Position numbers and translations under genes: made by a program. Shown one piece after another: positions 14,268-22,228 of a stretch of DNA of 64,000 nt (position 1 is the first letter of the stretch; each line of letters starts with the position of its first letter). The stretch lies in NCBI RefSeq assembly GCF_056712565.1, contig NZ_CM160072.1; one strand, written 5' to 3'. Under the pieces are notes generated by a model. It searched no databases, was not told the DNA's origin, and saw nothing but the letters and a program-made list of their open reading frames with translations.

Positions 14268-14351
14268 TCGGATGCGACGCTGATGCGTCTTATCCGACCT
14301 ACGGGGAGCGCATTTGTAGGCCGGATAAGGCGTTTACGCCGCATCCGGCAC
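14268..14351. repeat. BIME: two inverted REP units between phnL and phnK
   Basis: tcggatgcgacgc...cttatccgacctac and gtaggccggataaggcgtttacgccgcatccggca. Confidence 0.8.
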
Positions 14352-14355
14352 CAGC

Positions 14356-15114
14356 TCAATTCTGCAAAACCGATGACACCAGCAACTGGGTATACGGATG
14401 GTGCGGGTCGTCGAGCACGCGGTCGGTTAACCCACTCTCCACCACTTTCCCTTGCTTCATTACCAGCAAACGGTCCGCCAGCAGACGGGCGACGCCTAAA
14501 TCGTGGGTGACAATCACCACCGCCAGGTTAAGCTCCATCACCAGACCGCGGAGCAGGTCCAGCAGGCGCGCCTGTACCGACACATCCAGCCCGCCAGTGG
14601 GTTCATCCATAAACACCAGCTTCGGATGCGTCACCAGGTTGCGGGCAATCTGCAAACGTTGCTGCATGCCGCCGGAAAAGGTGGTCGGCAGGTCGTCGAT
14701 CCGGTTGGCGGGAATCTCCACCTCTTCCAGCCATTTCTGCGCGGTGGCGCGAATATCGCCGTAATGACGCGCTCCGGTTGCCATCAACCGTTCGCCGATA
14801 TTGCCGCCTGCCGACACCTGGCGGCGCAGGCCGTCAAGCGGATGCTGATGCACCACACCCCATTCGGTGCGCAGCAGGCGACGGCGGTCGGCCTCGCTCA
14901 TCGCGTACAGCGAACGGTTCTCGTAGCGAATTTCCCCTTGCTGTGGTGTCAGGCGGGCGGAGATCGACTTCAGCAGCGTGGTCTTCCCGGAGCCGGACTC
15001 CCCAACAATGCCCAGAACTTCTCCCGGCCATAAATCAAAAGAGACATCGCTGAAGCCTTTGCCCGGGGCATAAAGGTGGGTCAGGTTATTGACCGAAAGT
15101 AACGGTTGATTCAT
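14356..15114 (-). CDS. phnK: C-P lyase ATP-binding subunit PhnK
   Basis: ORF 14356..15144; start at [11 protein letters not shown]; Walker [10 protein letters not shown]. Confidence 0.92.
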
Positions 15115-15956
15115 TGGCTTTTGGCCTCGTTCTGTTGGCGGCAATAATCGGTATCGGAGCAGACAAACATGCGGTTTCCGGCGTCATCCAGCACCACTTC
15201 GTCGAGGTAACTGTGGGTCGATCCGCAGATGGCGCATGGTTCATCCCACTGCTGGACGGTGAACGGATGATCATCGAAATCGAGGCTTTCCACGCGGGTA
15301 AACGGTGGCACGGCATAGATGCGCTTCTCGCGCCCCGCGCCAAACAGTTGCAGGGCGGGCATCATGTCCATTTTCGGGTTATCGAATTTCGGGATCGGCG
15401 ACGGGTCCATTACGTAGCGCCCGTTCACCTTCACCGGATAGGCGTAGGTGGTGGCGATATGACCGAAGCGGGCGATATCTTCATACAGTTTCACCTGCAT
15501 CACGCCGTACTCCTCCAGCGCGTGCATGGTGCGCGTTTCCGTCTCACGCGGCTCAATAAAGCGCAGCGGTTCGGGGATCGGCACCTGGAAGATAATGATC
15601 TGATCTTCGGTCAGCGGCGTTTCGGGTATGCGGTGACGCGTCTGGATAAGTGTCGCATCGTCCGTGCGCTCGGTGGTGTTCACCCCGGTCACGCGCTTAA
15701 AGAAGTTACGAATCGACACGGCGTTGGTGGTATCGTCTGCGCCCTGGTCAATCACCTTCAACACGTCGCTTTCGCCAATCACGCTGGCGGTGAGCTGAAT
15801 GCCGCCGGTTCCCCAGCCGTAGGGCATCGGCATCTCGCGTCCGCCAAACGGCACCTGATAACCGGGGATTGCCACCGCTTTTAAGATAGCGCGGCGGATC
15901 ATGCGTTTGGTCTGCTCGTCGAGGTAAGCAAAGTTGTAGCCGCTCAGATTAGCCAT
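15111..15956 (-). CDS. phnJ: C-P lyase catalytic subunit PhnJ (radical SAM-like)
   Basis: ORF 15111..16145; start at MANLSGYNFAYLDEQ; C-terminal Cys cluster CAICGSTHSYLDE. Confidence 0.92.
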   Translation of the reverse strand: MANLSGYNFAYLDEQTKRMIRRAILKAVAIPGYQVPFGGREMPMPYGWGTGGIQLTASVIGESDVLKVIDQGADDTTNAVSIRNFFKRVTGVNTTERTDDATLIQTRHRIPETPLTEDQIIIFQVPIPEPLRFIEPRETETRTMHALEEYGVMQVKLYEDIARFGHIATTYAYPVKVNGRYVMDPSPIPKFDNPKMDMMPALQLFGAGREKRIYAVPPFTRVESLDFDDHPFTVQQWDEPCAICGSTHSYLDEVVLDDAGNRMFVCSDTDYCRQQNEAKSQ

Positions 15957-17013
15957 GGTTCTGCTCCTGTTGCAGACGTTTGAGTAGCTCCAGTTCGGCC
16001 TGGAAATCGACGTAGTGCGGGAGTTTGAGATGCGAAACAAAGCCTGCGGCTTCGACGTTGTCGGCATGGGCCAGCACGAACTCTTCATCCTGTGCCGGAC
16101 CTGTTGCGTGCTCGCCGTATTCCGGTGCCTGCAACGCACGGTCAACCAGCGCCATCGCCATTGCTTTGCGCTCGCTCATGCCGAACACCAGCCCATAGCC
16201 GCGTGTAAAATGCGGTGGTTCATCCGGCGGGTCGATAAAACCGTTGACCATTTCACACTCGGTCATCAACAATTCGCCGACGTTCACCGCAAATCCCAGC
16301 TCTTCCGGCACAATAAATATATCGATATAGCCACTGCGAATTTCGCCTGCGAACGGGTGATTGCGCCCGTAACCGCGTTGGGTGGAGTAGGCCAGCGCCA
16401 ACAAATAGCCTTCGTCACCGCGCATTAATTGTTGTAGACGGGAAGAACGCGAACAGGGATAAACCGGCGGCGTGCGGGTGATGTCGTCCGGTTGTGCGCC
16501 GCTATCTTCTTCAAACTTCGCCAGCCCCTGACGCGCCAGCAGGCTGAAGACGTGTGGCGACGGTTGCTGTTCGCTGTCAGCGGTGGTCAGCGTTGGCGTT
16601 TCGCCGTTTGCCAGCAGGGTGAAATCGAGCAGGCGATGGGTGTAGTCGTAGGTGGGGCCAAGCAGTTGGCCGCCGGGAATGTCTTTATAAATTGCTGAAA
16701 TACGCCGTTCGAGACGCATCCCGGTGGTGTCGAGCGGCTCACTGACCGCCAGCTTCGCCAGCGTGGTGCGGTAGGCGCGCAACAGGAAAATCGCTTCGAC
16801 GTTATCGCCGCTGGCCTGTTTCAGCGCCAGCGCGGCCAGCTCGCGGTCGGCAATACCGCCTTCGGTCATCACGCGATCTACCGCGAGGTTAAGCTGCTGT
16901 TCAATCTGGGCGACGCTCAGTTCAGGCAAATCAGTATCGCCCCGGCGTCGGCTCTCTTGCAGGGCGTGGGCGGCGTCGATCGCCTTTTCGCCCCCTTTCA
17001 CGGCAACGTACAT
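15949..17013 (-). CDS. phnI: C-P lyase core subunit PhnI
   Basis: ORF 15949..17019; start at [16 protein letters not shown]. Confidence 0.92.
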   Translation of the reverse strand: MYVAVKGGEKAIDAAHALQESRRRGDTDLPELSVAQIEQQLNLAVDRVMTEGGIADRELAALALKQASGDNVEAIFLLRAYRTTLAKLAVSEPLDTTGMRLERRISAIYKDIPGGQLLGPTYDYTHRLLDFTLLANGETPTLTTADSEQQPSPHVFSLLARQGLAKFEEDSGAQPDDITRTPPVYPCSRSSRLQQLMRGDEGYLLALAYSTQRGYGRNHPFAGEIRSGYIDIFIVPEELGFAVNVGELLMTECEMVNGFIDPPDEPPHFTRGYGLVFGMSERKAMAMALVDRALQAPEYGEHATGPAQDEEFVLAHADNVEAAGFVSHLKLPHYVDFQAELELLKRLQQEQNHG

Positions 17014-17597
17014 CAGCACACCTCCACATGAGTGGTTCGCGGAATAGCCAGCAGGCGCTCGCCGCAGGTCAGGATCAGGTCGATGCCGAGCGGGAACGGG
17101 TGCGGGCGCTCGGTAAGTTCATGAAGAATGCACTTTGGCAGTTGCGGGGCGATCATCCGTTCTTCGGCAATACCTGCGCCGGTGAGGCGCAACATACGCC
17201 CACCGCTCAGGCTGGTGACCTGTAAAATCAGCGTTGCGCCCGCTTCTGGTGCAACGGCAGTGCCGGTGGAAAGGGCGTTGAGCTGCTCGCTGGAGATCGC
17301 CTCATCTGTTACCGCGAAGGTCGCCTGTTTCGGCTGATTAACCAGCGGCGCGTTGGTATGAAAACGCAGGCTCTGATTGACGATATCGTTGCTCAATGGC
17401 GCGGCAAGCCACACCGGCGTGTCGTTATCGGCCAGCGTCAGCAGCACGCTGGTGGTGGCGATATTCAGCGGCTGCCAGCCGCGCTTGAGCTGATGCAGGG
17501 CGACAATCACGCCCGGCTCGCTCATGGCCTTTAACAGGCGACGAAAACTGTGTTGGGCATCCTGCACGGGAAGCATAAAAGCGGTTTCCAGGGTCAT
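17013..17597 (-). CDS. phnH: C-P lyase core subunit PhnH
   Basis: 194-aa ORF; operon position. Confidence 0.9.
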
Positions 17598-21507: not shown

Positions 21508-21544
21508 GATGCAGCCTCCCTAAAAAAGTGGCTCCATCGTGGCG

Positions 21545-21584
21545 GATTATTGTGACGATTTGGTTAATTAAAAGTGACTAACAG
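21545..21584 (-). promoter_or_regulatory. Putative PhoB-binding Pho box upstream of phnC
   Basis: On the minus strand CTGTTAG-TCAC-TTTTAAT-TAAC-CAAATCG-TCAC-AATAATC: 7-nt units spaced by 4 nt with ~11-bp periodicity, 40-80 nt upstream of the phnC ATG. Confidence 0.5.
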
Positions 21585-21639
21585 ATGAAGAGTTAACGGG
21601 AATTCGATGACAGTGCGGGAGGGTGGGCCTCCCGGCGGG

Positions 21640-22083
21640 TTATTGCGTTGGCTGTTGTTTGACGACATTAATCATCCACGGTACGCCAAATTTATCGGTG
21701 ACTTTGCCGAAGCCATGCGCCCAGAAAGTTTCCTGCCAGGCCATTTCGATTTTTCCGTTAGCGGCAAGGTTGTCAAACCAGCGTTTTCCTTCTTCGACCT
21801 GTTGCGAATCGAGCACCAGCGTAAAGCCGGAGTAGCTGGCTTTTCCTGACGGTATAGCATCGCTCATCATGATGTCGCTTCCTGCAATGCGCACGTTGGC
21901 ATGAGCGATGGCGGTATCGGGAAATTGCATTCCGGAAGGGCAGTTTTCGGCGCTGTCCTGCGCTGATTTCGGCATTTCGCCGAAGCTGATTTTATAGAGC
22001 AGTTCCGCGCCCAACGTACGTTGATAATAGGCAATCGCGTCGGAACAGTTACCGGCAAAAGAGAGGTAGGGACTTAACGGCAT
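21640..22083 (-). CDS. yjdN: PhnB-like / glyoxalase-fold protein YjdN
   Basis: 147-aa ORF MPLSPYLSFAGNCSDAIAYYQ... Confidence 0.85.
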   Translation of the reverse strand: MPLSPYLSFAGNCSDAIAYYQRTLGAELLYKISFGEMPKSAQDSAENCPSGMQFPDTAIAHANVRIAGSDIMMSDAIPSGKASYSGFTLVLDSQQVEEGKRWFDNLAANGKIEMAWQETFWAHGFGKVTDKFGVPWMINVVKQQPTQ

Positions 22084-22148
22084 GATGGTGACCTCAGTTA
22101 AGAGAAGCCCGTTAAGTGTAGTTCGAAATTTATACAGATGAGAGGGAA

Positions 22149-22228
22149 GCCTGATAAGACGCGGTCAGCGTCGCATCAGGCAGTCGCCACCGTTGCCGGA
22201 TGCGGCGTAAACGCCTTATCCGGCCTAC
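22149..22228. repeat. BIME: two REP units between yjdN and yjdM
   Basis: gcctgataagacgcggtcagcgtcgcatcaggca and gccggatgcggcgtaaacgccttatccggcctac. Confidence 0.8.

Follow-up and report, generated by a model that had tools for sequence, protein, structure and literature searches.

Paired inverted REP units in gaps of the Escherichia coli phn region and their probable role as RNA hairpins

Introduction

Repetitive extragenic palindromic (REP) units, together with the bacterial interspersed mosaic elements (BIMEs) that they form, are the best-known repeats of Escherichia coli, and one of the closest known relatives of the elements examined herein is REP325 of strain K-12, the model REP of the field. 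REP325 lies between yjdM and yjdN and comprises six tandem 100-bp copies with 12 units. It protects and raises yjdM mRNA, cuts yjdN transcription about 8-10-fold, partly via Rho, and yields a ladder of hairpin-ended RNAs; genome-wide, tandem pairs of genes with a REP between them have a higher upstream/downstream expression ratio (Harris et al., bioRxiv 10.64898/2026.03.23.713779). REP325 is also the source of the RNA called naRNA4 (PMC4550694). Here we describe inverted pairs of Y-type and Z2-type REP units in a 64,000-nucleotide stretch of contig NZ_CM160072.1 (RefSeq assembly GCF_056712565.1), hereafter called the window. These pairs occupy three gaps of the phn region, between phnK and phnL (site 1), phnD and phnE (site 2), and yjdM and yjdN (site 3). 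We consider it probable, at odds of roughly three in four, that the pairs act as RNA hairpins that protect the upstream message and partly attenuate downstream expression.

Other precedents come from transport operons. In the classic mRNA-stabilizer examples malE-malF and hisJ-hisQ, a binding-protein gene is followed by a REP hairpin directly past its stop codon, and then by a gene for a membrane or ATPase component. Site 2, and a related element between alsB and alsA in the window, have a similar layout, an analogy that is positional only. REP units are non-coding, non-autonomous repeats that are thought to be spread by a REP-associated tyrosine transposase, and a GTAG/CTAC tetranucleotide at one end is needed for binding of the TnpA-REP protein (PMC3333891). 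A Y and a Z2 unit in inverted orientation, separated by a short S linker, constitute a BIME-2, which often occurs in tandem with copy numbers that differ among strains (Ton-Hoang et al., PMC3333891). Our search of the literature on REPs in the phn operon returned nothing specific to that operon.

Results

Inverted REP Pairs Occupy Three Gaps of the phn Region

Positions 14000-22400 of the window are identical (100%) to many phylogroup-B2-type E. coli chromosomes, including those of UTI89, IHE3034, NU14, and ATCC 11775, which indicates that the window derives from a chromosome of this type. This region was found in 5,388 of 5,426 complete E. coli genomes. Gene names and starts were transferred from the UTI89 annotation, which places alsA, alsB, alsR, phnP to phnC, yjdN, and yjdM on the minus strand, so that the phn mRNA corresponds to the window read as its reverse complement. 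In these coordinates, the three gaps between minus-strand genes extend from the phnK stop at 14356 to the phnL ATG at 14245 (site 1), from the phnD stop at 19678 to the phnE ATG at 19572 (site 2), and from the yjdM stop at 22243 to the yjdN ATG at 22083 (site 3).

Sites 1 and 2 are inside the phnCDEFGHIJKLMNOP operon, whose 14 genes run from phnC to phnP. Site 3 belongs to a separate yjdM-yjdN unit, whose genes are historically named phnA and phnB. Because the phnC upstream region falls between yjdN and phnC, this site is outside the operon and upstream of the promoter region of phnC. This promoter region was identified by eye and is presumably the pho box that was reportedly described by Makino et al. 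in 1991; a Pho-box consensus scan allowing 3 mismatches missed it. An earlier model-made reading of the window from its letters alone (the sequence-only reading) had placed paired inverted REP units at 14268-14351 (phnL/phnK), 19588-19674 (phnE/phnD), and 22149-22228 (yjdN/yjdM). Consensus and profile matches reproduce these unit boundaries to within 4 bases, and the flanking genes agree with the UTI89 annotation. Its statement that all three elements punctuate the phn operon, however, applies to sites 1 and 2 but not to site 3.

The 34-nt Y consensus GCCGGATGCGGCGTNAACGCCTTATCCGGCCTAC has two matches without a mismatch in the window, at 14316-14349 (minus strand) and 22195-22228 (plus strand), and the Z2 core pattern also has two, at 14271-14294 and 19643-19666; for each pattern, 0.00 matches are expected on the basis of 100 shuffles. 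A profile built from the six units and used with nhmmer, alongside a regex scan, recovered six strong units in three inverted pairs over the 64 kb (E 1e-10 to 2e-8), and no other unit had a profile match at E < 1e-7. Beyond these, a degenerate pair at the als site, and a weak single unit at 27864-27891, neither search gave a further REP match in the 64 kb. All REP units lie between annotated coding sequences, and the GTAG/CTAC tag is present on five of the six phn-region units, the exception being the Z2 unit of site 3 (TTCC). When 5,425 E. coli genomes were searched with queries containing the phn-region elements, the median number of matching places per genome was 25-38; no other 28-nt-identical copies of the variant units of site 2 were found. 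The three pairs are ordinary, already catalogued E. coli REP/BIME repeats and not a new finding.

On the phn mRNA, the first hairpin at site 1 is that of the Y unit (14316-14349, minus strand; -21.3 kcal/mol alone), which starts 6 nt past the phnK TGA. A 13-nt linker (14303-14315; GGGGAGCGCATTT on the plus strand) sits between the CTAC/GTAG unit ends, forming a tail-to-tail junction. The Z2-type unit that follows (14267-14302, plus strand; Z2 core match; nhmmer E 1e-10; -19.1 kcal/mol) has the variant stem GTCGGAT...ATCCGAC. It ends 21 nt ahead of the phnL start codon, with the GAGG Shine-Dalgarno sequence left free. At site 2 the order of units is reversed. A Z2-type unit with the same variant stem (19639-19674, plus strand; matched by the Z2 core and by nhmmer) comes first, its GTAG starting 3 nt past the phnD TAA. 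Beyond a 17-nt linker with a head-to-head (S-type) junction (19622-19638) lies a Y-type unit with a variant inner stem and loop, GGTGCAAGCACC (19588-19621, minus strand; nhmmer E 7e-9; -19.8 kcal/mol), which ends 5 nt before the GGAG Shine-Dalgarno sequence of phnE. The mRNA order at site 3 is the yjdM TGA, 14 nt, an inverted Y unit (22195-22228, plus strand), a 13-nt head-to-head S-type linker (22182-22194), a canonical Z2 unit in which TTCC replaces CTAC (22145-22181, minus strand; nhmmer E 2e-8), about 60 nt, and the yjdN ATG.

The CTAC/GTAG ends therefore face each other at site 1 (tail-to-tail) and point outward at sites 2 and 3 (head-to-head). By the scheme of PMC3333891, sites 2 and 3 are each a single BIME-2 unit. 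Site 1 corresponds to the junction between two BIME-2 units of an array, and is therefore a partial or atypical BIME. The tandem, variable-copy arrangement of BIME-2 elements is seen at site 3 across the population, with one copy in the window. The pairs may be described either as BIME-2-type units or as "REPIN"-like doublets, the latter being two inverted REPs that form one long hairpin, as do the minimum-energy folds of sites 1 and 2 (-46 to -53 kcal/mol).

The two-unit elements of sites 1 and 2 are also present in K-12, at the same places in the phnK/phnL and phnD/phnE gaps, in the same orientation, and with equal gap lengths (110 and about 105 nt). The K-12 counterparts, at 12918-13000 and 18247-18333 of the K-12 locus record (L001), show point differences only. 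Site 3 shares with K-12 REP325 its locus, its Y-S-Z2 unit, and its orientation relative to yjdM, and its 13-nt linker aligns with that of each REP325 repeat. In contrast to the six copies and 12 units of REP325, site 3 has one copy that forms 2 hairpins, with no CTAC tag on its Z2 unit. This comparison identifies site 3 as a single-copy ortholog of K-12 REP325.

The Pairs Form Stable, Compensated Hairpins

On the minus (transcribed) strand, the predicted folding energies of the pairs are -52.7 kcal/mol for site 1 (z -7.5), -50.6 kcal/mol for site 2 (z -6.4), and -50.1 kcal/mol for site 3 (z -5.1), and in each case none of 200 shuffles folded as well. Single phn-region units yield -18.6 to -21.7 kcal/mol each and contain the characteristic internal mismatch. 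In the minimum-energy fold of sites 1 and 2, the two units pair together in a single long hairpin, whose energy is about -46 to -49 kcal/mol. Folding during transcription would favor two local hairpins, and the structure is predicted to be very stable either way.

Sequence changes among the units preserve the hairpin. The Z2-type units of sites 1 and 2 have GTCGGAT...ATCCGAC instead of GCCTGAT...ATCAGGC, and these changes are compensatory. In an alignment of nine units, eight of them distinct, 91.4% of stem cells are paired and four pairs are changed on both sides, whereas sliding the alignment register by 1-3 columns leaves just 36-45% paired. This pattern shows that compensatory changes keep the hairpin intact among REP units.

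The related element that the sequence-only reading noted between alsA and alsB, at 7485-7568, proved to be a degenerate pair. It consists of a Z1-like unit (7484-7512, plus strand; regex match) with a weak hairpin of -5.9 kcal/mol, and a degenerate Y-like unit with an enlarged inner stem and loop (7526-7568, minus strand; nhmmer E 0.012; -20.2 kcal/mol). The Y-like unit starts about 11 nt past the alsB stop and is present in K-12 and UTI89 as well. The fold of this pair is weaker than those of the phn region, at -26.9 kcal/mol (z -4.4). RNA folding, which the same reading had proposed as a check, thus gave a stable structure for every pair (z -5.1 to -7.5, and -4.4 at als), together with similarity to the REP consensus. 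We also considered the BIME-1/RIP type, in which a Y and a Z1 unit flank a long L linker with an IHF site. This assignment was rejected, as no match to the IHF pattern WATCAANNNNTTR is present in or near any of the four elements; the als pair does include a Z1-like unit, but there are just 13 nt between its unit coordinates.

Repeat Alleles Differ among E. coli Strains

Copy number at site 3 varies widely. In 3,709 of 5,426 genomes, 80% or more of a 681-nt query is contained in a single match. Among 59 chromosomes sampled at even steps down the hit ranking for this site, 36 have the same span as the window, with one BIME. Three have an additional 99 nt and two BIMEs (O157:H7), one has an additional 205 nt and three BIMEs (six units confirmed), and one, from a divergent lineage, has one Z2 unit only. 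The remaining 18 have larger arrays; those checked contain five or six copies or, beside an ISEc31, no fewer than four and a half. Copy numbers of 1, 2, 3, 5, and 6 are thus represented among E. coli strains. In strain CB6837 (L009), the transposase gene of ISEc31, an IS3-family element, adjoins the REP325-type array and replaces yjdN.

Variation at sites 1 and 2 takes another form. At site 1, the REP pair is found in 4,839 genomes, and a 176-nt spacer with two inverted BoxC elements in 545 (about 10%). Of the 5,387 genomes with this locus, 5,384 carry one or the other of these two alleles, and no empty allele was seen there. At site 2, the REP pair is present in 3,836 genomes (about 71%) and a single or double BoxC in 1,331 (about 25%; double in 356), with about 220 genomes in none of the counted allele classes; other REP pairs are rare, and one divergent strain examined has such a different pair. 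The REP alleles of the window, UTI89, and K-12 are single pairs, and the span of the 701-nt queries for these two sites is constant across the sampled genomes. REP number and position, which the sequence-only reading had suggested comparing across E. coli, therefore coincide with K-12 at the level of sites and differ among strains in copy number at site 3 and in the presence of BoxC at sites 1 and 2.

BoxC elements (also called PIT or TMECO), which we recognized from the sequence table in PMC4666352, resemble the phn REPs in that they form very stable hairpins and sit in exactly these two gaps in other strains of E. coli and in related genera. However, they belong to an unrelated sequence family (CCCTCTCCC...GGGAGAGGG...GGGTGAGGG) and are absent at sites 1 and 2 of the window. 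BoxC is reportedly almost absent from B2 strains, IHE3034 being an example (PMC4666352). The alternative alleles also fold strongly (-24 to -92 kcal/mol, z -3.1 to -8.2); at site 2, all four alleles that were folded do so, namely the REP pair, single BoxC, double BoxC, and the alternative REP pair. With these data, the identity, structure, position, K-12 orthology, and population variation of the elements are established.

Two further observations concern these loci. The site 1 linker GGGGAGCGCATTT (14303-14315) resembles the BoxC flank GGGGAGCGGTGCGCGCATTG of the alternative allele (345-378 of locus record L003), a likeness that could be chance or a trace of one allele replacing the other. 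In addition, the flanks of phnK/phnL (13960-14660) show 90-95% identity to most E. coli (4,339 of 5,469 records), and the phnD/phnE (19280-19980) and yjdN/yjdM regions 95-99% identity in most E. coli, so divergence is uneven along the phn operon.

Equivalent Gaps in Other Species

A PhnK-based scan with one genome per species was used to examine the operon outside of E. coli; none of the best 80 loci is from Escherichia, Shigella, or Salmonella. A length for the phnK-phnL gap was obtained in 52 of these 80 loci, where its median is 24 nt and 39 of the 52 gaps are no longer than 40 nt. Of the 13 longer gaps, eight hold the palindromic repeats of their own host; for example, Pseudocitrobacter has several BoxC units, Enterobacter asburiae three REPs, Citrobacter werkmanii a REP pair, and Stutzerimonas REPs of the Pseudomonas type. 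No structure is seen in the remaining longer gaps, among them those of three Yersinia species. The phnK/phnL site has the look of a junction that is colonized only now and then.

The phnD-phnE gap is 59-251 nt in all 21 of the best 80 loci for which it was obtained, while phnC-phnD is about 24 nt and phnE-phnF about 20 nt. Among the 19 phnD-phnE gaps that were folded, all z-scores are negative and 12 are -2.2 or lower; these values are rough, since only 40 mononucleotide shuffles were used for the cross-species folding. The hairpins belong to unrelated families and include non-repeat hairpins in Vibrionaceae, Hafnia, Pseudomonas, and others. Because the long gaps bear hairpins of unrelated sequence, a hairpin after phnD, the binding-protein gene, is widespread and its sequence replaceable. 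The long phnD-phnE gaps and their varied hairpins, the strong folding of all four E. coli alleles, and the classic order of binding-protein gene, hairpin, and permease gene lend support to the idea of selection at site 2.

Discussion

RNA-Level Function and Its Alternatives

We propose that the elements are co-transcribed with their flanking genes from the minus strand, and that each unit would form a hairpin of about -20 kcal/mol or each pair one long hairpin. Such hairpins would block 3'-to-5' exonucleases, such that the yjdM, phnC-phnD, and phnC-phnK segments would outlive the segments downstream of them. They may also pause or partly terminate transcription with the assistance of Rho, which would result in less yjdN, less of phnE onward, and less of phnL onward. 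For sites 1 and 2, and for the two-unit site 3, we infer these steps by analogy. The stabilizer or attenuator role suggested in the sequence-only reading is the mainstream view in the literature and has been shown experimentally for K-12 REP325, and it would extend to sites 1 and 2 by that same analogy.

An effect on translation is also conceivable. In work quoted in PMC12306157, REPs that begin less than 16 nt past a stop codon reportedly down-regulate translation of the upstream gene. The distance from stop codon to hairpin is 6 nt for phnK, 3 nt for phnD, 14 nt for yjdM as measured to the GTAG (18 nt to the stem), and about 11 nt for alsB. By this rule the phnK and phnD hairpins qualify and the yjdM element is borderline. 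Because they are so close to the stop codons, the hairpins 6 nt past phnK and 3 nt past phnD could lower translation of the upstream gene through interference with termination.

Site 2 and the als element, where a binding-protein gene, a hairpin, and a membrane-component gene succeed each other, make the strongest case for a role at the RNA level, and site 1 makes the weakest. Several points weigh against the proposal. The phnK-phnL gap is at most 40 nt in 39 of the 52 listed species, making site 1 look dispensable. PhnK and PhnL are present 1:1 in the Phn(GHIJKL)2 complex, and there is therefore no obvious need for differential expression at this site. In the polarity genetics of Metcalf and Wanner from 1993, phnC-P reportedly behaves as one operon, so any termination would have to be partial. 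Moreover, REP effects are reported to be context dependent, with some REPs placed after reporters failing to stabilize, and the effects of REP325 were measured with 12 hairpins rather than the 2 of the window strain.

It is also possible, though we regard it as the less likely course of events, that REP or BoxC palindromes are neutral or selfish insertions that persist harmlessly in permissive gaps and have no selected role in phn expression. The phnK-phnL gap is short in most species, and where it is long it holds whatever repeat family the host carries. Likewise, sites 1 and 2 of E. coli strains carry either REP pairs or the unrelated BoxC, whose loci are known for their instability (PMC4666352), and site 3 ranges from 1 to 6 copies, with a single unit in one lineage. 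Neutral persistence fits less well with the fact that no empty allele was seen at site 1, where REP (4,839) and BoxC (545) occupy 5,384 of 5,387 genomes, or with the phnD-phnE gap being long in 21 of 21 listed species, usually with a hairpin even where no repeat family is present. In addition, K-12 REP325 measurably affects its neighboring genes. A function in DNA rather than RNA seems improbable to us; BIME-2 elements might serve as sites for gyrase (or for Pol I or another protein) that relieve the supercoiling caused by transcription of an 11-kb operon. The BIME-2 class is said to be bound and cut by gyrase, a result attributed to Espeli and Boccard in 1997. The Y plus Z2 composition is that of BIME-2 (PMC3333891), and every unit is capable of forming a cruciform. 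The sequence gives nothing to separate a DNA-level from an RNA-level role. However, no IHF site is present, and in many strains the REPs are replaced by BoxC alleles, which have no known gyrase affinity.

Still harder to credit is the possibility that site 3, and by similarity site 2, encodes the nucleoid-associated naRNA4, which with HU would bridge cruciform DNA and condense the chromosome. HU binding and REP325-dependent condensation have been reported in K-12 (Qian et al. 2015, PMC4550694), and the Rfam model for naRNA4 (RF02564), which has a gathering score of 59.5 bits, gives 96 bits on the minus strand at site 3 and 68.7 bits on the plus strand at site 2, both above that threshold, with no match at site 1. 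Yet this model is in effect one Y-S-Z2 BIME unit, and a match therefore shows REP identity rather than a separate gene. The site 2 match is, moreover, antisense to the only known transcription, and the window strain has one unit rather than six, as do 36 of the 59 sampled chromosomes. In K-12, deletion or overexpression of REP325 was without effect on nucleoid volume, and no REP-REP contacts were detected (bioRxiv 10.64898/2026.03.23.713779). We find even less reason to view the hairpins as ordinary intrinsic (Rho-independent) terminators that subdivide the operon, despite their GC-rich nature and their location directly past stop codons. No U-tract follows any hairpin on the transcribed strand, the downstream sequences being without T runs, and a scan for intrinsic terminators gave no hit at the four elements. 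Furthermore, phosphonate use requires the downstream genes of the phn operon, which the phnC promoter serves to express. Protection of the upstream message combined with partial attenuation of downstream expression, as proposed above, remains our preferred interpretation.

Gene Calls and Neighboring Features

The palindromes also affect gene annotation. A mechanical open reading frame (ORF) call at 13565-14359 starts with TTG and has 264 aa, 38 codons more than phnL as annotated (226 aa, 13565-14245), and this extension spans the entire site 1 BIME. The sequence-only reading had attributed the overlong call to the element, an explanation that holds, although the whole BIME rather than part of it lies in the extension. 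A similar artifact affects phnE, called at 18793-19635 and annotated at 18793-19572. Even in the K-12 reference, the phnE1 start ATG (18280-18282 of L001, corresponding to 19621-19623 of the window) overlaps the edge of the Y REP unit, and the first 17 codons of that annotation therefore translate REP sequence. The UTI89 phnE start from the NCBI pipeline (window position 19572), 51 nt downstream of the K-12 start and behind the GGAG Shine-Dalgarno sequence, is more plausible. Gene callers, and even the K-12 reference annotation in the case of phnE1, thus run reading frames into REP palindromes.

Several other features of the window were observed. A GC-rich hairpin without a U-tract, CCGGGAGG-CCCA-CCCTCCCG, is located at 21612-21632 (minus strand), a few bases past the yjdN stop and before the phnC promoter region. 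Just past the proP stop, at 27864-27891, there is a single degenerate Z-type REP unit (GCCTGATGTGACGCTGTCTAATCAGGTCAA; nhmmer E 0.23), directly upstream of an Rfam STnc630 match (27893-28058) that overlaps the small pmrR gene. The spacer between yjdP and phnP is 27 nt in the window (10667-10693) versus 146 nt in K-12 (9199-9344 of L001), and BoxC/TMECO elements are located in the additional DNA of K-12; element 22 in the list published for that strain lies at 4314285-4314320. Within alsB (minus strand), one C is missing at 8378 relative to UTI89 (GCC to GC), which shifts the frame after about codon 44 and therefore splits the gene in the mechanical ORF list (7577-8398 and 8230-8517). This frameshift reflects either a real pseudogene of the strain or a sequencing error.

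Concluding Remarks

Given how familiar REP and BIME repeats are, and that REP325 is already so well studied, the presence of the three pairs carries little weight as a discovery. The survey of alleles and copy numbers is a modest by-product of the analysis that can be tested. The 12-hairpin REP325 of K-12 is atypical: 68% of 5,426 complete genomes have an array short enough to give one match (no more than 3 copies wherever this was checked), and 36 of the 59 sampled chromosomes have the single-copy length of the window. Short arrays elsewhere bear on the generality of the results obtained with naRNA4 and REP325.

The BoxC alleles in the phn gaps represent natural swaps with which the contributions of structure and sequence could be tested. 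One tentative and rather doubtful extension of our proposal is that the hairpin after phnD, and less so that at phnK/phnL, is a selected, sequence-independent module with interchangeable alleles and no empty one, and that the swaps and the array constitute standing regulatory variation. If this is true, then the replacement of REP by BoxC and the 1-to-6-copy array between yjdM and yjdN would tune the expression of phn and yjdMN among E. coli lineages.

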